Below, piece by piece: positions 12,910 through 57,400 of a stretch of 64,000 nucleotides of DNA (position 1 is its first letter; every line of letters starts with the position of its first letter). The position numbers were made by a program, and so were the translations under genes. The notes below the pieces were generated by a model, which did not search any database, was not told where the DNA came from, and worked only from the letters and a program-made list of their open reading frames with translations. The stretch covers positions 20,691 to 84,690 of the forward strand of contig CANQGW010000001.1 of the NCBI GenBank assembly GCA_947623555.1. The letters are read 5' to 3'. Source of the stretch: an uncultured Clostridia bacterium (GTDB taxonomy: Bacteria > Bacillota > Clostridia > TANB77 > CAG-508).

Positions 12910-14139
12910 TTATGCTATTTTATTTTTTTGTTTAGTGTATTTTCCTAGTGACTGGCAACTATTTTTTACAACCCTCATTGCACCTAATTCCACTAATTTA
13001 TTGTAATAAAATTGAATAATTTTGTAATGTTTATTTAAATCCTTGCGTAGTTTCTTTAGCTCATTTTTTAAAAATAATATTTGTTTTTCTTTTATATAAT
13101 CTATATAGTTAGTATTTTTTCCTTTACTTACTTCTTGATATTCCTTCCAAAATTCTTTATACTCTTCACGTGCTTGTGGTTTGTCCCAATAAATTTTAGT
13201 AGATAATAGTTTCACATCATATTCTTCTATTAGTGAAAGCAATAATGAATATGCCTTTTCTTGCTTGCGTGCAACTTTTGTATCTACTATTAAGCTTCTA
13301 GTATCCTGTAATAATTTTTCATAGCATTGTTCTGCTACAATTAATGGCAAACTATGTGTAAATAGTTTACGACTTAATCCTAATAAAATCATATTTTTTT
13401 CAATATTATCATTTTGATCTAATTTACCAACTGTAAATCTTTCAAAGTTTTGGTAGTCATCTAAAATGCTTTGATATACTTTGTTTTCTGGGTCTTGTTT
13501 CATTTTTAATGGTAAAATATTTTCTATGTAATCTTCTAATGTAGAAAATATTTTATTATATACTTCATCTTTAGCACCAGAACTTAAATTGTCTGCTAGT
13601 TTAATAGAATAATGCTTTAGTAAACCTTTATATAAGCTTTCCATTTGATATGTATATAACTCTTTGTACTTTTCTATTAAAGATTCTTTTCCAGATATCT
13701 CTACTGTTTGATAATCTATATTTAATAAATACATTTGCTTTCTATATTTATACTCTAAATATTCGGTTTCTTTTAAATGAACAATAACATAATATTGTGA
13801 TAATGCATTTTTTTCGAAGTCAGTTGCGGTTTCATTTTTTACCTTTTTATAAATTGAATCTAAAATATATTTATCTATTGACTCTAAATACAAAGCATAA
13901 ATATCTTCAAACTTTTTTGTAATACTTTCTTGTTTTTGTTGATCATTTAAGTTTTCGCTATTTATATATGCTTCATAAGCTTTTAGAGCATTATTTCTTT
14001 TAATAGAAATAAGCATTCCATTAAGTCCGATTTTAGTTGGTATTAGTAGTTTTGTAATAGTTTTGGTTAATTTTGAGAAAAATGTCTTTTCTTGGTATAC
14101 TCTTAAACTTCTTTCTTCCATAGCTTTTCTTCCTTTCAA
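12910..14139 (-). CDS. hypothetical protein (coiled-coil rich, no family recognised)
   Basis: This clean 409-aa ORF overlaps the yqfD stop by 4 nt, which suggests operon coupling. It occupies the slot where phoH sits in Bacillus. Confidence 0.6.
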   Translation of the reverse strand: MKGRKAMEERSLRVYQEKTFFSKLTKTITKLLIPTKIGLNGMLISIKRNNALKAYEAYINSENLNDQQKQESITKKFEDIYALYLESIDKYILDSIYKKVKNETATDFEKNALSQYYVIVHLKETEYLEYKYRKQMYLLNIDYQTVEISGKESLIEKYKELYTYQMESLYKGLLKHYSIKLADNLSSGAKDEVYNKIFSTLEDYIENILPLKMKQDPENKVYQSILDDYQNFERFTVGKLDQNDNIEKNMILLGLSRKLFTHSLPLIVAEQCYEKLLQDTRSLIVDTKVARKQEKAYSLLLSLIEEYDVKLLSTKIYWDKPQAREEYKEFWKEYQEVSKGKNTNYIDYIKEKQILFLKNELKKLRKDLNKHYKIIQFYYNKLVELGAMRVVKNSCQSLGKYTKQKNKIA

Positions 14140-15320
14140 AATACAATTTTTTCTTTTGCTTCAATGTTTTCTAATACTTCGTAAATAACTTCAACCTCTA
14201 TATAATCTGCACCATTTTCAACATTAACATTTTTATTTACAATTGCTTCTTTATTTTGCACCATTTCATCTAACTTTTTAGTTGCTTCTTCTATTGCAAT
14301 ATTTTTTGCCTCCTCTTGAGTATATGTTATTTGCCTGTCTTCATACTCCTGAAAGGTTTTGGTATGTATTTCAATTGGTAAATAAAAATTAGAAAATAGT
14401 TTTAATTTTTTTGTTGTTTCTATTGTATCATACTTTTTAAATTTTGAAACCCTTTTCGATAAATTTATTTCAAAATTATTTATCTTTACGGAATATTTAT
14501 TTTCCTCCTGCCCAGTTTTTGCTTTTTGCACTTGATTTAGCTCTATTTTTGCTTTTTGAGAATACCAAACTTTAGCCTGAACCTCGCCATTTGCGTGCAC
14601 ATACCTCGTTCCTGTATACTTTCCTTCTAGCCAACCACCTACTAATATACTACCTTTCGTAACAATGTCTCCTTCTTTTACTACGGGTGTGCCGTTTTGA
14701 GCTGTTACTTTTGTTATCATTCCATCTTTTGTTGCAACAAGATTACAATATTCGTCTTCCTTAATTATATCTGGTTTTACATCTGCTTCCACAATTTTAA
14801 CTATTGCATTTGTGCCATTTATTTGTATACCTATCCAAGCAATATCTGCTCTTTTTAATCGAATTTGCTGAACTATTTCATTTGTTTTCATTCCTATTTT
14901 ACACTTACCAATTTCAAAATTATTTTCTTTTAAAAGATTTAATATTTCAGCTTTTTCAATAGTTTCATTTCCTGTAATTTCAATATTCCAAATAAAATTA
15001 GATAAAGCTATAATTGAAAGTATTATTAGCAAAAAGGAAATTACAAATATTTTTCTTTTTTTATATTTATGCATAAAAAAAGGAATCCCCTTCTTTTTTT
15101 GCATTTTTACTTTACATTTTGTTTTTTTAGCAATTGGTTTTAATTTTTTAAAATCTTTTATACCAATATTAAATATTACTTTAGTAGAATGTGTTCTTTT
15201 TAAATTCCACAAAAATATCTTTTGACTATTGCAATAATTCATAAAACGCTCTATAAAGTAACCTTCTACTTCAATAGTAACATATCCTAGAATAATATTT
15301 AGTAATATTTTAAAGTACAA
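14136..15320 (-). CDS. yqfD: sporulation protein YqfD
   Basis: The ~394-aa length, a central TM segment and its position directly after yqfC all fit. The N-terminus (ILGYVTIEVEGYFIERFMN) is YqfD-like. Confidence 0.8.
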   Translation of the reverse strand: MYFKILLNIILGYVTIEVEGYFIERFMNYCNSQKIFLWNLKRTHSTKVIFNIGIKDFKKLKPIAKKTKCKVKMQKKKGIPFFMHKYKKRKIFVISFLLIILSIIALSNFIWNIEITGNETIEKAEILNLLKENNFEIGKCKIGMKTNEIVQQIRLKRADIAWIGIQINGTNAIVKIVEADVKPDIIKEDEYCNLVATKDGMITKVTAQNGTPVVKEGDIVTKGSILVGGWLEGKYTGTRYVHANGEVQAKVWYSQKAKIELNQVQKAKTGQEENKYSVKINNFEINLSKRVSKFKKYDTIETTKKLKLFSNFYLPIEIHTKTFQEYEDRQITYTQEEAKNIAIEEATKKLDEMVQNKEAIVNKNVNVENGADYIEVEVIYEVLENIEAKEKIVF

Positions 15321-15666: not shown

Positions 15667-16066
15667 TTACTTTTCAAATTCATCAAGTGTTTTAAATTCA
15701 TAACCCATATTTTTAATTTCTTTAATACAACTATCTAAAATATTGCTATTATCTTTTGAATTTCCATGGAGTAAAATAACTGCACCATTATGAACATTAT
15801 CTAATATCTTTTTCTTTCCATATTCTTCTCTTCCTTGTTTGTTTTCGTCCCAGTCATCGTATGCAACAGACCACATTACTGTTTTGTATCCCAATGTATT
15901 AGTGTATGCTATGGTTCTTTGGCTAAATTCACCTTTAGGCGGTCTTATATACTTCATTTCATAGCTAAATTTCTCATAAATTGCTGTATGTAAATCCATA
16001 ACCTCTTTGTTAATTTGTTCATTAGTTATATCTGGCATAGATTTATGGTTAACAGTATGATTTCCT
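15667..16066 (-). pseudogene. pdaA: 3' segment of the split pdaA (delta-lactam-biosynthetic de-N-acetylase)
   Basis: The in-frame reading from the junction is (G)NHTVNHKSMPDITNEQ...IRPPKGEFSQRT...VMWSVAYDDWDENKQ...ILLHGNS. A stop codon lies immediately upstream of the junction core. Confidence 0.8.
16056..16066. repeat. 11-bp direct repeat (candidate att core) at the junction with the pdaA 3' segment
   Basis: TATGATTTCCT is identical to 18635-18645. Confidence 0.75.
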
Positions 16067-16130
16067 TATTCCTTAAGTCCAGTATTAGTTAAATTTTAAG
16101 CTAATACTGAATTTAAAGTTTTAGCTTCGA

Positions 16131-17730
16131 CTATATGCATCTTTCAAACTTAAATTTTATGAATATATTTTTATCGCTATCAAATTCTATTTTCTCTATT
16201 AGTTTTTCATACATTTCTTTTGTTACGTTTTTTAAACTTAATATTTCTTTTATCTGTTTTAGAATTTTATTTATATCCACTTTTTCTAACTCTTCTTTTT
16301 GTTTTTTTATTTCATATTCCAAAATTTTTATTTCATTTGAAATTTTTGTTTTTTCCTCGATTTTTTTAGAATAAAATTTTTCAAAATCCTCCTGTCTAAT
16401 TATTTTATTTACTTTATCTTGATATATTTCTTCTAGCATATTATTAATTTTTTCTAATTCTAACTTATTTATTTTTAGCTTCTTTTCTAATTTATCTATT
16501 TCTTCTTTTGCTTTTATTTGAGAATTTTTATAAATGTCTTTTAACTCTCCTCTTGAGTATGTAACTTTTTCTATTTCTTTTATTAATTCTTTTTTTATTT
16601 GTTCTTCTATATAATCTGCTCGTATTTGCTTATTATTACAATTTCTTCTATTACTATTTTTATTAGAACATATAAAATAATCTACTCTCCATTCCTTGCC
16701 TGATTTTCTTTCTTCTACTCTAGTTCTTAATGTTGCTACTCCGCATGCATTCTTTGCAAAATATTAAACCTTTAAGAGGATGATTAAATTTCCTTGTTCT
16801 TACAGCATGCTTATTTTTTATTTTTTCCTGTGCTTTATTCCATGTTTGCATATCTATAATTGGTTCATGCATATTTTCCACTATTATATATTCTTCTGGA
16901 TTTGTTGTTCTCACTTTGGCAATTTTATGACTTACTTTTTGAAATTTCCTACCAACCACATTTCCAATATATACTTCATTTTTTAATATTTTTCCTATTT
17001 GAGTTCTGTGCCATATATATTTGCCATCTCTATTACTACTTTCTCTTTTTATAAAAGTTGGTATTTTTAAATATATAGCCGGTGCTAATATATCTCTTTT
17101 ATTTAATTCATCTGCTATTTTTTGTGGTGACATTCCTTTATTTACATACATGTTAAATATTTCTTTTATAATTTCTGCTGCATATTCATCAATAATTAAA
17201 TGATTTTTTGTTGTTTTATCCTTTTTATAACCATACGGTGCTATTCCTCCTTGAAATTCCCCTTTTTCTATTTTTCTAAATTTCACACTTTTTATTTTAT
17301 TTGAAATATCTTGTGCATAATAATCGTTAAAACTTAATTTAAATGTTAAAAATTGAAGTCCATCAGGTCTTAAAGTATCTACATTATCTCCAATTGCAAT
17401 ATACCTTATTGAGTTAGATGGAAAATATCTTTCTAAATAATAGCCTGTATCGATATGATCTCGTCCAAATCTCGATAAATCTTTGGTTATAATGCAGTTT
17501 ATTTTTTCATCTTGAATATCTTTTAACATCTCCATAAAACCTGGTCTGTTAAAATTTGTTCCCGTAAAGCCATCATCTGCATATTCTTTTACTTCTTCTA
17601 AATCATCATGTTCATTAATGTAATTATCAATAATATCCCTTTGATTTTCTATACTTTCACTTTCTCGATCATCTCCATCATCCCTAGATAACCTCATATA
17701 TTTAGCAACTTTATATATTTTATTTTTCAT
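16131..17730 (-). pseudogene. large serine recombinase (SpoIVCA/TndX-like) with one frameshift
   Basis: The N-terminal resolvase domain (YMRLSRDDGDDRESESIENQ, catalytic Ser) and the recombinase domain are followed by the zinc-ribbon start GLIFCKEC. The frame breaks between 16723 and 16763. My translation of the other frame continues open (ATLRTRVEERKSGKEWRVDYFICSNKNSNRRNC...) into the coiled-coil ORF 16131-16439. Confidence 0.8.
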
Positions 17731-17939
17731 ATTATTTTTCTCCTATGCATTTTATTAAAATATCTTTCAAAATTTCCTTTAAATCTTCTATACCATATTC
17801 TACATAAACTTTATTTTGCAACTTTATTTCCTCCTCATAATATTTTATTTAATAATATGAAATAGAGAAAAAAATATAACAAAAAAAATAACTATTGGAT
17901 TTTATATTTCCTTTAGTTATTTTTTATTTATATACTTAA

Positions 17940-18422
17940 TTAATCTTTATTTATTAAATGTACAGGATATTTTCCTTCTTTTAAAACTGCTTGTATTTTT
18001 GCTGGCATTAATGGAATTTGATCTATCTTGTTTTTTTCTATCCATTCATATTGTAAGTAATCTTTTCCTTCTATATTTTTTATTGTATCTTGTATTAATT
18101 TATCTTTTTCTTCTTTAAATTCAGCTAAATATACAAATTCTATTTCGTGGTATTTCTTTCCTTTCATTACAAAGAAATTTTCTACTGTTGATATATAATC
18201 TATTATTTCAATTTCTTTTCCTATTTCTTCCTTTATTTCTCTTTTTATAGTAGTTATCGAATCTTCTCCTAATTCTACTCTCCCTCCCATTAAAGCATAA
18301 TGGTCTGAATTTATATTTTTATGAACCAATACTTTATTATTATGAACTATTACTGCTGCTGCTCTAACATTTAATACATAATCTTGTACTTCTATTGTTA
18401 TATCCATATTTAGTATTTTCAC
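17940..18422 (-). CDS. NUDIX hydrolase
   Basis: The Nudix box GGRVELGEDSITTIKREIKEEIG is present. The gene lies inside the intervening element. Confidence 0.85.
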   Translation of the reverse strand: MKILNMDITIEVQDYVLNVRAAAVIVHNNKVLVHKNINSDHYALMGGRVELGEDSITTIKREIKEEIGKEIEIIDYISTVENFFVMKGKKYHEIEFVYLAEFKEEKDKLIQDTIKNIEGKDYLQYEWIEKNKIDQIPLMPAKIQAVLKEGKYPVHLINKD

Positions 18423-28368: not shown

Positions 28369-29764
28369 CTACTTTACATAAAGTACAACACGGAAACCGA
28401 AGCTAGGAATATCCTTGCTATCAGCCTTGTCAGCGCAACGGCGGGTTGAGATTGGATCTTCAAAACCGGTCGCGGTAAAAACTGCCACCACGAAGAACAG
28501 CGTATTTCGTACCGCTGGTTTTTCCATTACGATATCCATACTCTGTTGTCCACTCGTACATATTTCCTGCCATGTCATATATATTTTTTAATTTTGTATT
28601 GTCACTTGCTCCAGTTGCTATTTCTACATAATGATTATATGTGCATTTTGTATCGTTGACATAATTATAATATTTACTATTTGCATCGCTAGTTGCATCA
28701 GTCCAGTTTTTGGTATATCCAGACGTGAATGTTCTATATTGATAACTTTTTCCTGTACACCAGCCACTATCTGCTTTACCTTCATTTTTTCTTAAGTGTT
28801 CTGCCCATAAGCAATTATCTTCTGTTATTTGATTTTCTCCAGTACTATTTTTATAGTTTCCATGTTTTGTACTATCTTTTTCTATTCCTTCGTACTCTTT
28901 TGACATCCATGTTACAACTGTATCCCACGCCGTTCCATCTATTAATTGGCTTCTTACTCCGTAATTATCTCCACTATACATTCTTCCTGATACCTCTAAT
29001 GCATTTGGTTGACTTATTAAATTCCACGCTTGTACCCCCTTTTTACTTACTGGTTTTAAATTAGTACCTATATTATTTTTACTTTCTTGATATGTTTTAT
29101 TATCACTTGAAGCATCTACATAAAAATCTGCATTACTTGGTACTCCTGCTTCATATCTTCCTATATAAAATCCTTTATTTTCTTCTACACTTTTTTCATT
29201 TTCTGTTTCATCTGCTTCTTCTTTCCAGTCACTATATGCCCTATAATACCATGTGTTCCATCCAGCATCAGCTTCTCCACTTTCACTTTTATCTTCTACA
29301 TTATTGTTTATATCATTAGTATTTTCATTATTATATTCATGTTTTTTGTAATTACCATCTTCACAAGGTACCCACACAAATTCGTTTCCTTCTCTATCTG
29401 CTATTACTACTCCATTTTCTATTAGTTCTTCTTCTTTTACTTTAAACCCCTTTGGCACTGTCATTGTTTTTCCACTTTCATCTTTTATTTGCTTATTTAC
29501 CGTAAATATTGTTCCTTTTTGTATTGCTTCTTTTACTGTATCTGGCAAACTTTCTCTTTCAAACTCTTCTAATTGATTAACTAGTTTTCCTACAGCCTCT
29601 TGCTCTTGTTTTATAGATTCATCTGTTTTTTCTTTTGCCTTTTGTGCTCCGCTTATTATTCCATTATCTCCAAATACTGCTGTTATACTTACTCCTGCTA
29701 ATATTAATAAAACTACTATGGTTACTACTAATGCAATTAGCGTTATTCCTTTGTTTTTCAACAC
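28369..29764 (-). CDS. pilin-signal / FGE-sulfatase (C-type-lectin fold) domain surface protein; frame broken near the 3' end
   Basis: The N-terminus KGITLIALVVTIVVLLILAG is prepilin-like. The C-terminus reads DMAGNMYEWT...VLRGGSF, then a stop, and the remaining ...RRCADKADSKDIPSFGFRVVLYVK continues in the adjacent frame (track ORF 28369-28578). The shift must lie between 28463 and 28483; candidate sites are the A5 run 28477-28481 or the A4 run 28462-28465 at the interval edge. Confidence 0.7.
28385..28545 (-). other. GC-rich segment with adenine-free scaffold codons, resembling a DGR variable region
   Basis: GC is roughly 50% here against a ~28% background. The coding strand has A-free runs of 18 nt (28484-28501), 15 nt (28431-28445) and 19 nt (28385-28403) over LRGG, RRCA and FGFRVV. 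Arg is encoded by CGT/CGC here but mostly by AGA elsewhere. Confidence 0.35.
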
Positions 29765-29782: not shown

Positions 29783-29811
29783 TTTTCTTTAAGGTATATA
29801 CTTAAAGAAAA
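29783..29811. repeat. 29-bp lox/dif-like site, left copy (11-bp arm, GTATATA spacer, 11-bp arm)
   Basis: TTTTCTTTAAG GTATATA CTTAAAGAAAA is the exact reverse complement of 29973-30001. Confidence 0.7.
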
Positions 29812-29814
29812 TGC

Positions 29815-29860
29815 AAAAATGCTTGTAATAAGCTACACTGCCTAATTACAAGCATTTTTT
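29815..29860. terminator. strong bidirectional hairpin terminator inside the putative invertible segment
   Basis: AAAAATGCTTGTAAT...ATTACAAGCATTTTT forms a 15-bp stem with A/T tracts on both sides. Confidence 0.65.
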
Positions 29861-29930
29861 AAAGTTCAAAAAATGAGGAATTTTTAAAAATATTTTTCAA
29901 AAAATTTATATAAAACTTTGGTATTTTTCC

Positions 29931-29959
29931 TTGACATTGTAGGCTTTTATTGCTATCAT
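29931..29959 (+). promoter_or_regulatory. near-consensus sigma-A promoter inside the putative invertible segment, currently pointing away from the FGE gene
   Basis: TTGACA (29931-29936), a 17-nt spacer and TATCAT (29954-29959). Confidence 0.55.
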
Positions 29960-29972
29960 AAACATATAAAAA

Positions 29973-30001
29973 TTTTCTTTAAGTATATACCTTAAAGAAA
30001 A
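29973..30001. repeat. 29-bp lox/dif-like site, right copy (spacer TATATAC, inverted)
   Basis: TTTTCTTTAAG TATATAC CTTAAAGAAAA matches 29783-29811 at 29/29 as an inverted repeat. Confidence 0.7.
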
Positions 30002-30125
30002 TTTTTTGTGTTTTTTACCTATCAAATTACTTAAATTCATAGTAATATTTTTATTTCTTCATTAACTGCATTAGTAATACTATACAATAAAATAGTTTTA
30101 AATTTAGAGCATAGTAAGATATGGT

Positions 30126-30677
30126 TTATAGGCTTGGCTGTAAACGTGCTCCGCCTACAACATTAACTTTTCCACCATTTTGATTAAAAGTTTTTGTAGA
30201 ACCATCTGCACTCTTAATAGTACCTGTACCTCTTATTGTTAATGTTCCAGCTGTTACATTTATTGTTTTATTTATTTGCATTGTATTTGACTGTAAATCT
30301 ATTGTTACTGTTTTATTCATTTGTAACCCTGTCGTATCTTCTGTTACATTTTTTTGTAAAAATATTGTTCCTCCGCTATTATCTTTGCCATTATTTATAA
30401 CATCATCATACGCGCTTTTTAAAGTAGCATAATATTTTATATTTCCATTATTTATTATGCTGTAACTAAACTCTGTAGTCATTTGATTATAAATACCATA
30501 CTTATATTCTAAATCTTGCTCATAAACCTCTTTTATTTTTGGCATTGTTTTTAATTGACTTTTTCTTACAGATGCTGAACCCATAAATAATGCACTTATA
30601 ATAAATATGAAACTTAAAATAGTTACTATTGAATAAACAGTCATTGAACCTTTTTCATTGTTTAACCAATTTCTCAT
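30126..30677 (-). CDS. membrane-anchored hypothetical protein with a beta-helix-like C-terminus
   Basis: It has an N-terminal anchor (GSMTVYSIVTILSFIFIISALF) and C-terminal T/N/G-rich repeats (TVTIDLQSNTMQINKTINVTAGTLTIRGTGTI). I recognise no family. Confidence 0.5.
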   Translation of the reverse strand: MRNWLNNEKGSMTVYSIVTILSFIFIISALFMGSASVRKSQLKTMPKIKEVYEQDLEYKYGIYNQMTTEFSYSIINNGNIKYYATLKSAYDDVINNGKDNSGGTIFLQKNVTEDTTGLQMNKTVTIDLQSNTMQINKTINVTAGTLTIRGTGTIKSADGSTKTFNQNGGKVNVVGGARLQPSL

Positions 30678-54489: not shown

Positions 54490-57400
54490 TTACATTTCTA
54501 CTTCTATATTATAAACTCCTCCACTTGAATTTAAGGTCACCTCTTTTTCAGGTATTATTGTGTCATTTAACTTAAATGAGGTTATTCCATTACATTTTCC
54601 ATTTGGGTTAGTTATATGAATATGATAAATACTACTTCCATATTTATATTTTATACTATATTCCTTCCAGTCGCTTGGAATACAAGGCTCTATTTTAAGC
54701 TTTTGTTTTTCTATTTTTAGCCCTAATAAATATTTAATTCCCGCTTCGTACATCCAACTGCTTGAGCCAGTATACCAAGTCCAACCTCCACGACCTGCTA
54801 AATTCTTTTGCCCATAAATATCTGCAGATATTACATATGGCTCAACCTTATATTTATTTGCCGCTTCCTTTGTTCTACTATGCTCTATTGGATTTATCAT
54901 TCTATAATATTCCCATGCTTTATTTCCAAAACCTAAAATTGCTTCTGCAATAATTGCCCAAATAGCTGCATGTGTGTATTGTCCACCGTTTTCCCTTGTT
55001 CCTGGAAGATAAGCTTTAATATAGCCTGGGTTTAAATTTGATTTATCAAATGGTGGATCTAAAAGTTTTATAAGTCCATTTTCTTTGTCTACTAAATGGT
55101 TTTCTAGGCTTTCCATAGAAATATATTTTTTATCATTATCACCTGCACCTGATATTACTGACCAGCTTTGTGCTATGCTGTCTATTCTACACTCTTGGTT
55201 TTGAATACTTCCAAGTACATTTCCATCATCCATAAATGCCCTTTTATACCATCTTCCGTCCCATCCATTATTATTTAATGCCTTTTTTAACTTTTCAGAT
55301 ATATTTTCATATTGTTTTGCAAGTTCTTCTTCTCCTTTATAAATACATATTGGTATAAATTTTTGAAGAATAATATATAAGAAAAAACCAAGCCATACAC
55401 TCTCACCTATTCCAAGGTTACCCACCTTGCTAAACCCATCATTCCAGTCACCAGAACCTATTTTAGGAAGTTTATTTTCTCCAAAATTTAATGAAATTTG
55501 AATTGCCTTTTTGCAATGCTCATATATGCTTTCTACTACATCAGATGGTGGGTAATATTCGTATTTTTCATCTTCATCTGGCTTTAATACCTCTCCTTGT
55601 AGGTATTGAGCATTTTCTTCTAATAAGCTCATATCACCAGTAAAGTCAATATATTCTTCTACTAAATACACAAGCCATAATCTATCATCACTAAATTTAG
55701 TTCTAATTCCTCTTAAAGTTTCTTCATGCCACCAGTGCAAAACGTCACCTTCTACAAATTGATACTTACTATGCTTTATAATTTGCTCTTTCATTAAGTT
55801 TATATTGCTATATTTTAATGCTATAGTATCTTGAAGTTGATCTCTAAAGCCAAATGCTCCTCCTGACTGATAGTATCCAGTTCTGCCTAACATTCGTGAT
55901 GCTAGTATTTGATATATAAGCCATCCATTTAGTAAAATATTAGTAGATTCTAGTGGTGTAGAAACCTGAAGTTTTTCTGTTTGCTCTTTCCAATATCTTT
56001 TTGTTTTTTCATATTCTTCATCTACTTTGGCCATGTTTGTATATTGGTATGCTAAATCTTGACATTCTAAAACTGTACTTCCTACCCCAAAAGCTAGTAT
56101 AACTTTTTTTGTTTCTAATGCCTCTAGCTCTACTTCACATTGAATAGCTATTATTCCATTTTCCCATAATGAATTTTCTTTGTTTAGTTCTATTTGTTTT
56201 ATAGCATCTGGAGCACTTAAGTTTCCCTTGCCTATAAATGCATCTTTACTTCCTGTATATGATGTAATTTTTTCACTACTACAAACAAATAAATATTGTG
56301 AAAATTCATCTTCTGCAGATAAATTTTTCATACATACTAAATTAGATTTTTCGTAGAATTCTAAATTCAAATATTCATTAGTTTTTAGCTCATCTTCCCC
56401 AAGTACTGGTTTTAAATAATAAATTAATTTTATTTTTTTCTTTTTTAATTCATTATTTTCTAATTTTAATATTTGAATTTTAACCATGTCATTTAATGGA
56501 ATAAACATGTCTAACTTTTGGCTTAAGCCCTTGCTATGGTGCATATATTTGCTGTATCCAAAGCCATAAGTTATATAATAGTCATTTTCATCTGGGCAAG
56601 GTGCTAACCCTAATGACCATATTTTTTTGGTTTGCATATCTTGCAAATAAATAATTTCTGATGGCACATCTACTACCGGCATATTATTCCATGCTGTTAG
56701 CCTGTTTAACCTACTATTTTTATACCAAGTATAACCTCCCATGCTTTCTGTTACTAGTGTTCCAAATTTTTTATTTGAAATTACATGGCTCCATACTGTT
56801 GGTAATTTTTCTTCTTTGTTTACACGAATATAATATTCCTTTCCATCTTCTAAAAATCCACCATATTCATTTAAATATTTTAAATTTTCTAGTTTTTCTC
56901 TAATTGGTTTTTCATCTTCTACTATGTTTATCTGTTCTTCTTGCGGCATTTGTTTAATTTCATCTAAATATTCTTCTTCTAATTCTTTTAAATATCTAGC
57001 ACTACTTCCATAACCTGCATCTATGGTTAAGTTCGCACGATTTTCTAAAAAGTTTATTTCATCTTCTGATAGGCTATCTAGTACAAATATTCCTCCAGAT
57101 ATGTTTTGTAAATATCCTATATTTTCATTTAATATGCAAGTTAATATACTATCTTTTAAGGTGCTTTGGTAACTGTATGGCTCTCTATTTATAATAACTA
57201 AATCTATTCTAATATTTTTTACATAAAAATAATGATATAATTTTAATAATTGCTCTACTACCTCTATTTCTTCTGCATTTTTTATTTTAATTGCTAAAAT
57301 TGGTAAGTCGCCAGAAATGCCATATTGCCATAATTTACTTACTGGCATATTTTCCTGCACGTTACAATAAAGCTTTTTAAGTGGATTTGCATATAGTAGA

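Follow-up and report, generated by a model that had tools for sequence, protein, structure and literature searches.

The loxP, FRT, and dif sites consist of two inverted arms around an asymmetric spacer of 6–8 bp; sites placed head to head invert the DNA between them, and the spacers of partner sites are identical. In Clostridioides difficile, one unlinked tyrosine recombinase, RecV, serves several invertible elements (cwpV, flgB, and cmrRST) controlling surface properties; the inverted repeats differ between these loci, and several of the switches act via terminator or riboswitch logic. In Mycoplasma penetrans, most of the 38 surface-lipoprotein genes of the mpl (P35) family each have their own invertible promoter, switched independently by site-specific inversion, and genes for candidate tyrosine recombinases lie close to some of them, according to PMC2268961, which summarises Horino et al. 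(2003). Inverton catalogues contain abundant Firmicutes invertons in human metagenomes, according to PMC11602134 (DeepInverton), which cites Jiang et al. Here, we discuss a short cassette upstream of a 434-aa surface-protein gene in a 64,000-nt stretch of DNA (hereafter the window; contig CANQGW010000001.1 of assembly GCA_947623555.1, positions 20,691–84,690) from an uncultured Clostridia bacterium (TANB77; CAG-508). An earlier reading of this DNA, made from the sequence alone, had proposed a promoter switch here. We found that the cassette is very probably a site-specific invertible promoter (inverton) of a family conserved in uncultured low-GC gut Clostridia, and that it is currently in the OFF orientation.

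Among described systems, mpl is the closest functional analogue: it shares with the present family many paralogous surface-protein genes, often in tandem, each with its own short invertible promoter, and a candidate recombinase encoded near some of them. The likeness is functional only, as the host here is gut Clostridia and the proteins are prepilin-type, DUF285/LRR, GLUG, or FGE-like rather than P35 lipoproteins. As in gut-bacterial invertons, including the capsule and surface-protein switches of Bacteroides, promoters flanked by inverted repeats lie upstream of surface-structure genes, and recombinases act, or here would act, on several loci; unlike the catalogued invertons, the present family has a defined 11-7-11 site, invariant arms, locus-specific spacers, a candidate recombinase, and a terminator-like distal site. 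The sites resemble loxP, FRT, and dif in having inverted arms around an asymmetric spacer matched between partners, but differ in their 11-bp arms and 7-bp spacer with conserved TA edges and 3–5 free central bases, and the candidate recombinase is distinct from Cre, Flp, and XerCD. The RecV switches of C. difficile, likewise a Firmicute, would offer a parallel in a single unlinked tyrosine recombinase for several switches; in the present family, however, the arms are near-identical at all loci and the promoter is a simple one. A literature search retrieved no description of this motif, recombinase subgroup, or set of controlled genes.

Paired sites, matched spacers, and a shared promoter

The sequence-only reading had described two 29-bp sites of 11-7-11 layout, 161 bp apart, that are exact inverted but imperfect direct copies, and this was borne out (Table 1). 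As inverted copies, the sites agree at 29/29 positions, or at 30/30 when one flanking base is included (29783–29812 versus 29972–30001); as direct copies, they show 7 mismatches, which are all 7 spacer positions. When up to 3 mismatches are tolerated, these are still the only two places in the window that match the arm pattern (chance expectation, 0.03), and none of 100 shuffles contained two or more matches. The search for further copies, which had been suggested as a check, thus yielded none beyond the two within the 64 kb of the genome that the window covers.

Site searches with the arms and any spacer were made in GTDB species genomes and metagenome contigs, and these scans detected 22 loci and 30 loci in the two collections (loci are given below as L numbers). 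Partner sites were sought with a relaxed pattern, the core CTTTAAG-N7-CTTAAAG. After removal of duplicates, 31 pairs remained, and the arm consensus was derived from 30 oriented pairs. The hosts are almost all uncultured gut Clostridia, from human (Hadza, UMGS bins), chicken, rabbit, and roe deer, and a single genome often holds several loci. Nearly every site has a partner 165–224 bp away; the interiors measure 136–195 bp, apart from two longer ones (261 and 283 bp), and every spacer is 7 nt long. The consensus is T-CTTTAAG-TAnnnTA-CTTAAAG-A, in which the arms are invariant at CTTTAAG/CTTAAAG, the central 3–5 spacer bases vary, and the spacer edges (T/A, TA) are conserved.

The spacers of the two partner sites were exact reverse complements in 27 of the 31 non-redundant pairs and differed by one base in 2 pairs and by two bases in 2 others; mismatches within a pair were found at L001, L016, L048, and L062b. 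Switches of one genome never shared a spacer (0/26 comparisons). A spacer that varies freely between loci but agrees within the pair, set between invariant arms, favors a recombinase core site over an operator or a terminator. The earlier assignment of the pair to inverted sites of the tyrosine-recombinase type is therefore supported by arms conserved over approximately 30 loci and by spacers that co-vary within the pair (27/31 exact). It could be argued that the palindromes are instead operators for a dimeric regulator, with or without looping, or two terminators around a fixed promoter, with no recombination: the sites are near-perfect palindromes, the distal site with its T-run is terminator-like, and the outer arm positions show stem-like co-variation. 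However, this gives no reason for spacers that are reverse complements in 27/31 pairs yet differ between loci, and it leaves unexplained the inverted interiors with exchanged inner arms and the repeated adjacency to a tyrosine recombinase gene, both described below. We consider it very improbable.

The near-consensus plus-strand promoter reported earlier inside the segment was also borne out: it is the best plus-strand promoter match in its region, matches the consensus at 11/12 positions with a TG extended −10 element, and its −10 end lies 13 nt from the distal site. Nearly all pairs of the family enclose a homologous promoter, TTGAnn-17-TGnTAnnAT with a shared TTTATTGnTAnAAT motif, which ends 12–15 nt from one of the sites and is directed outward across it; its position is conserved in approximately 30 cassettes. 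The perfect TTTT..AAAA site is usually the gene-proximal one, at 12–42 nt from the gene start at many loci and sometimes at up to ~330 nt, and the controlled genes read away from the cassette and have a purine-rich leader at their start. In the window, the GGAGG ribosome-binding site (RBS) and the two alternative start codons named by the sequence-only reading are present; RBS and start codon fall 9–19 nt past the proximal site, with the start of the 434-aa gene 19 nt beyond the left site. Across the family, the controlled genes specify putative surface proteins of various kinds; most of these begin with a prepilin-type N-terminus (KGITLIALVV...), and some have DUF285/LRR, GLUG, or FGE-sulfatase-like domains.

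Table 1. Features of the promoter cassette and its flanking genes, in window coordinates.
Feature	Position	Strand	Sequence or product	Basis or remark
Gene-proximal recombination site	29783..29811		TTTTCTTTAAG-GTATATA-CTTAAAGAAAA (11-bp arm, 7-bp spacer, 11-bp arm)	Fits the family consensus
Gene-distal recombination site	29973..30001		TTTTCTTTAAG-TATATAC-CTTAAAGAAAA	Exact reverse complement of the left site
Invertible segment	29812..29972		161 bp	Family interiors comparable, and inverted between homologous flanks elsewhere
Outward promoter	29931..29959	+	TTGACA-17-(TG)-TATCAT	11/12 with TG extended −10; homologous to the family promoter
Hairpin with U-runs on both strands (putative bidirectional terminator)	29815..29859	both		Folding energy and U-runs
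Extended palindrome around the distal site, with T-run	29968..30016	+	16-bp arms	Likely terminator of the OFF-state transcript
RBS and start codons	29759..29774	−	GGAGG (29774–29770); GTG/TTG (29764/29761)	9 nt from the proximal site
Controlled gene	28460..29764	−	434 aa; prepilin-type N-terminus (KGITLIALVV...), weak FGE-sulfatase-like C-terminus	Open reading frame (ORF); Pfam matches of homologues
Upstream gene	30126..30677	−	183-aa membrane-anchored protein	Identical in six gut-metagenome contigs

The window promoter is currently directed away from the 434-aa gene, opposite to the gene start, in agreement with the earlier call that the switch is OFF, and OFF is also the majority state in the family. 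Approximately 21 distinct loci including the window are OFF (promoter away from the gene), and L007, L009, L014, L016, L027b, and L048 are ON; the ON state of L048 and L014 was verified by reading the sequence. Gene–switch units also form tandem arrays, at L010 (3), L027 (2–3), L060 (2), and L062 (2), and the window has one switch. At two loci, L014 (6314–6680) and L016 (6433–6870), a second gene starts across the cassette from the first and points away from it; this gene encodes 331 aa and begins 134 nt from the site in L014, and encodes 378 aa and begins 226 nt from the site in L016. As far as gene order can tell, these two switches might toggle between two divergent genes rather than turn one gene on and off. 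In addition, L058 (1175–1330) has the proximal site only (spacer GTACATA), with a family promoter beside it toward the gene and then a terminator hairpin. This locus recurs in ten human-gut assemblies (L058, L019, L030, L033, L036, L037, L040, L041, L043, and L055) and apparently represents a locked-ON derivative of the switch.

Our proposed mechanism involves two tyrosine-recombinase core sites with inverted T-CTTTAAG arms and a 7-bp spacer, placed head to head around the segment. A ~313-aa Xer/Int-like tyrosine recombinase, presumably encoded elsewhere in the genome, would bind the four arms and exchange strands within the matched spacers, and the segment would flip. In the OFF state, the promoter would fire away from the 434-aa prepilin-type gene to give a short transcript ended by the distal-site hairpin and U-run, while the internal hairpin would block read-through from the upstream gene. 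After inversion, the promoter would stand 13 nt from the proximal site and read through that site into the GGAGG RBS and the gene (ON). The predicted ON junctions are the left flank plus site plus TTTTTATATG... (also as TTTTTATATGTTTATGATAGC) and ...CAAGCATTTTTGCA plus site plus the right flank (TTTTTTGTGTT).

Past inversion within the family and a candidate recombinase

Among all pairs of loci with homologous flanks, three comparisons have inverted interiors: L007/L010b, L027a/b, and L009/L020. L007 and L010b belong to the same metagenome-assembled genome (MAG), and their interiors align with a score of 108.5 as reverse complements versus 9 in the same sense; L027a and L027b are two neighboring cassettes on contig L027, and L009 and L020 come from two rabbit-gut MAGs. 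Using differences in the arms as markers, we compared three models by their arm mismatches. Crossover within the sites, in which the outer arms stay and the inner arms swap and invert, required 0 mismatches for L027a/b and for L010b/L007, whereas inversion of the whole cassette required 6 and 2, and no inversion 8 and 6, respectively; the arm markers of L009/L020 were uninformative. This indicates that the exchange lies between the outer and inner arms, inside the sites. The same cassette is ON at some loci and OFF at others, with an exchange point between the arms in 2 of the 3 flipped comparisons, as the earlier proposal of a flipping promoter would have it.

These markers also bear on a further possibility, namely a small mobile element similar to a miniature inverted-repeat transposable element (MITE), bounded by terminal inverted repeats and carrying an outward promoter, that inserted in either orientation. 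The cassettes are indeed short, multi-copy, bounded by inverted repeats, and found in both orientations relative to neighboring genes. However, only the inner arms have changed place, the outer ones having remained attached to their flanks (0 mismatches versus 6 and 2 for inversion of the whole element), which argues against a cassette inserting either way; moreover, the spacers are locus-specific and matched within the pair, the distance to the RBS in tandem gene arrays is short and fixed, and no empty sites or target duplications were noticed among the loci. Insertion of such an element is extremely improbable as an explanation.

The gene of a catalytically intact tyrosine recombinase adjoins site pairs of this type in three other lineages, its end lying 13–150 bp from the pair, and no member of this switch-linked family is encoded in the window, which is consistent with the unlinked recombinase envisaged by the sequence-only reading. 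At L018, the gene of a tyrosine recombinase of 313 aa (PF00589 with a SAM-like N-domain; E = 1.5e-31) lies ~150 bp upstream of a site pair and stands between two prepilin-type genes, each preceded by a site. At L060/L061 (77% identity) and L062/L063/L064 (72%), a site pair starts 13–53 bp past the recombinase stop codon and a second pair precedes the next gene; these loci, which sit among housekeeping genes, were obtained solely via recombinase homology and not via the sites. More distant homologues, at 60% identity (L065–67), have no adjacent sites. Across 80 members of the recombinase family, conservation of the catalytic residues R, K, H-x-x-R, H, and Y is complete (100%), and the named NCBIfam Xer and invertase models all scored far below their cut-offs on the candidate. 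The closest solved structure is PDB 6EN0/6EMY/6EMZ ("Int protein"; E = 2.5e-20 over the catalytic domain), which we take to be the Tn1549 integrase; relative to that type of integrase, the switch-linked proteins are shorter (313 aa) and encoded among housekeeping genes.

Two further integrases were encountered. L050 (12120–13351) comes from an unrelated organism of higher GC content and encodes a 384-aa integrase that is homologous to the switch-linked recombinases (E = 4e-74); 49 bp past its stop codon stands one perfect TTTTCTTTAAG-N7-CTTAAAGAAAA site, and no partner site is nearby. This site may be the attachment site of a mobile element, and its arrangement suggests that the invertase was recruited from mobile-element integrases. 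At L029, a 68%-identical homologue of the 434-aa gene stands beside an integrase gene, but the locus has no sites; we dropped this integrase as the cognate recombinase, as it is most likely that of a conjugative element.

The only recombinase gene in the window itself (16720–17730), 12 kb away from the cassette, encodes a serine recombinase, and one might ascribe the inversion to this enzyme rather than to a tyrosine recombinase. Its product is of the large, CcrB/XisF-like type, truncated to 336 aa and encoded between the halves of a split polysaccharide deacetylase gene, a position typical of the excision recombinases of gene-intervening elements; no homologue was found in 477 kb of site-bearing loci, and the odd-length 11-7-11 site is unlike the 12-2-12 geometry of serine-invertase sites. 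Switches of the Hin/Gin type have a small (~190 aa) serine invertase adjoining the segment, 26-bp sites with a 2-bp crossover, and an enhancer; here, no small resolvase or invertase is encoded near any cassette and the site is odd-length with a 7-bp spacer. We therefore regard an involvement of the serine recombinase as scarcely probable, and consider a tyrosine recombinase encoded outside the window the better candidate.

State of the window locus and proposed role of the hairpins

Several observations weigh against a switch that still operates at the window locus. OFF is the orientation in the window and likewise in L001, L002, and L004, three independent gut-metagenome assemblies extending into the segment. 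A search for the ON-specific junction in JGI metagenome contigs gave no match, in a collection from which the species itself is absent. In approximately 10 orthologous locus groups, each represented in 2–4 assemblies, the orientation never differs within a group; therefore, each switch has a stable majority state. In the strain variant L001, the spacers of the two sites disagree at 1 nt, a possible sign of decay, and the switch-linked recombinase family has no member in the window. Possible decay is also seen in a chicken-gut lineage, in which a frameshift truncates the switch-adjacent recombinase to 244 aa (P0129; L018, 1613–2590). This truncated protein is on record 49 times, on 6 contigs, so the truncation is not an assembly error; in this lineage, the switches may have become locked, or a different enzyme may serve them.

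Taken at face value, these observations would fit a relic or locked switch, that is, a cassette of the inverton family that no longer inverts here since the recombinase was lost or became inactive, leaving the gene permanently silent or otherwise expressed. Only the OFF state occurs in the four assemblies, no recombinase of the family is encoded in the window, and decayed relatives exist (the locked-ON locus; P0129, with 49 members; the spacer mismatches at L001, L016, L048, and L062b). Conversely, the window sites are perfect (30/30) in an AT-rich intergenic region despite an interior that has diverged by 17% between strains, which argues for continuing constraint or homogenization of the sites. 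The cassette and its gene retain an intact promoter, RBS, and ORF, and the window displays only 64 kb of the genome. We judge a locked switch to be unlikely; switching at the window locus is probably ongoing.

The divergence between strains is confined in a peculiar manner. The segment interior of the window and that of L001 (3619–3779) are identical at 136/164 positions (83%), while the adjacent 676 bp, comprising the flank and the 183-aa gene, are 100% identical; in L001, the stem of the internal hairpin is preserved and its loop is replaced. Contig L002 looks like a mosaic of the window and L001 versions of the cassette. The divergence possibly stems from cassette exchange or from assembly mosaicism, and a hypervariable interior between otherwise identical strains hints at exchange of cassettes via the same sites. 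We do not read contig ends as signs of inversion. The Logan contigs L003, L005, and L006 all stop 22 nt into the site, a position unlike that expected from a simple inversion and more likely to reflect a strain-variant bubble; likewise, the many contigs that end near cassettes are uninformative, as repeated paralogous cassettes would cause the same.

The bidirectional terminator proposed inside the segment was recovered as a strong hairpin with a U-run on either strand, at −21.1 kcal/mol on the minus strand (z = −4.8) and −17.7 kcal/mol on the plus strand (z = −4.7). We rejected such an internal terminator as a family-wide feature, as only 8/28 cassettes have a comparable hairpin; the internal hairpin is lineage-specific. 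In the window, its presumed role is to stop read-through coming from the 183-aa gene.

The distal site may act as a terminator as well. In the window, the site and its flanks fold at −18.2 kcal/mol (z = −6.6) and are followed by UUUUUUGUGUUUUUU. At OFF loci, the 10 nt after the distal site contain 6.25 T on average, compared with 1.25 T on the gene-proximal side, where the purine-rich RBS leader lies. Although the four outermost bases of the distal site frequently deviate from TTTT/AAAA, they remain mutually complementary: in the variant sites, 82/108 outer positions were complementary versus 60.3 ± 4.0 after permutation, and 0/20,000 permutations reached 82. Sites with one complementary outer position only were found at L007, L010b, L027b, and L048, three of which (L007, L027b, and L048) are ON loci; such hybrid sites are expected there because inversion should create them. 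Judging from the fold and the U-run, the distal site would terminate the OFF-state transcript after ~50 nt. The sequence-only reading had also expected RNA antisense to the 183-aa gene; this is doubtful, because the distal-site hairpin and U-run should end the transcript that early, and such antisense RNA is probably minor.

We tentatively propose, as an idea somewhat likelier to fail than to hold, that the family forms a regulon of many switches under one recombinase, with spacers that serve as barcodes and a distal site that has a second function as an orientation-dependent terminator; the literature searched described neither feature. In this proposal, locus-specific spacers between invariant arms would act as natural heterospecific lox sites, allowing one enzyme to serve dozens of promoters without cross-recombination, and the outer arm bases of the distal site would complete an 11-bp stem followed by a U-run in the OFF state only. 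The barcoding part is weakened by the resemblance of the candidate enzyme to the PDB 6EN0-type integrase, presumably that of Tn1549, as integrases of the Tn1549 type tolerate spacer heterology.

Neighboring genes and implications

The earlier label of the controlled gene as that of a surface protein with a pilin signal and an FGE domain held in its first part, the prepilin-type N-terminus, but the FGE-sulfatase part has only weak or precomputed Pfam matches in homologues to its name. The 434-aa protein belongs to a large family whose homologues carry PF03781 and PF07963, and the sole match in our own domain scan was N_methyl (E = 0.0077, below the cut-off). Exact-protein look-ups of the 434-aa protein with both start codons, and of its ncbi-sourced homologues P0002 and P0003, returned nothing on record, and an exact look-up of the ORF across the OFF-state junction did not find it on record. 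Both genes that flank the segment lie on the minus strand. The 183-aa gene terminates upstream of the segment, and its product matches no Pfam or NCBIfam model above cut-off; the gene is outside the control of the switch, and its transcript would end at the cassette hairpin.

Other features of the window are as follows. A polysaccharide deacetylase gene on the minus strand (15667–19082) is split into an N-terminal half (18606–19082; Pfam profile positions 3–64) and a C-terminal half (15667–16038; 72–124). Between the halves lie a NUDIX gene (17940–18422) and the gene of the 336-aa CcrB/XisF-like serine recombinase (16720–17730), and the sporulation gene yqfD (14136–15320) adjoins. This arrangement resembles that of a gene-intervening element of the skin type, which would be excised during sporulation. 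The sequence upstream of glmS (26467–28305), at 26343–26466, contains no recognizable glmS ribozyme, and the Rfam scan of the whole 64-kb window found no family at gathering score and no tRNA or riboswitch match. A quorum-sensing set of the agr type comprises a LytTR response regulator (19409–20149), a GHKL histidine kinase (20067–21476), and AgrB (21754–22374). Finally, a 1888-aa GH94-family protein is encoded at 54490–60156, preceded by an 861-aa ORF (60065–62650) without a Pfam match.

Invertible promoters are already well known and the conceptual advance is modest; the family itself is well-defined and new. With it, uncultured gut Clostridia of human, chicken, rabbit, and deer gain a defined phase-variation system, with its consensus site, its candidate invertase, and the surface proteins under its control. 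By searching for the 22-base arm pattern, such switches can be found and scored in metagenomes, and the matched-spacer architecture makes the family a candidate for a natural multiplexed recombinase system. For the organisms themselves, the controlled surface proteins are probable determinants of adhesion or of recognition by phages or the immune system.

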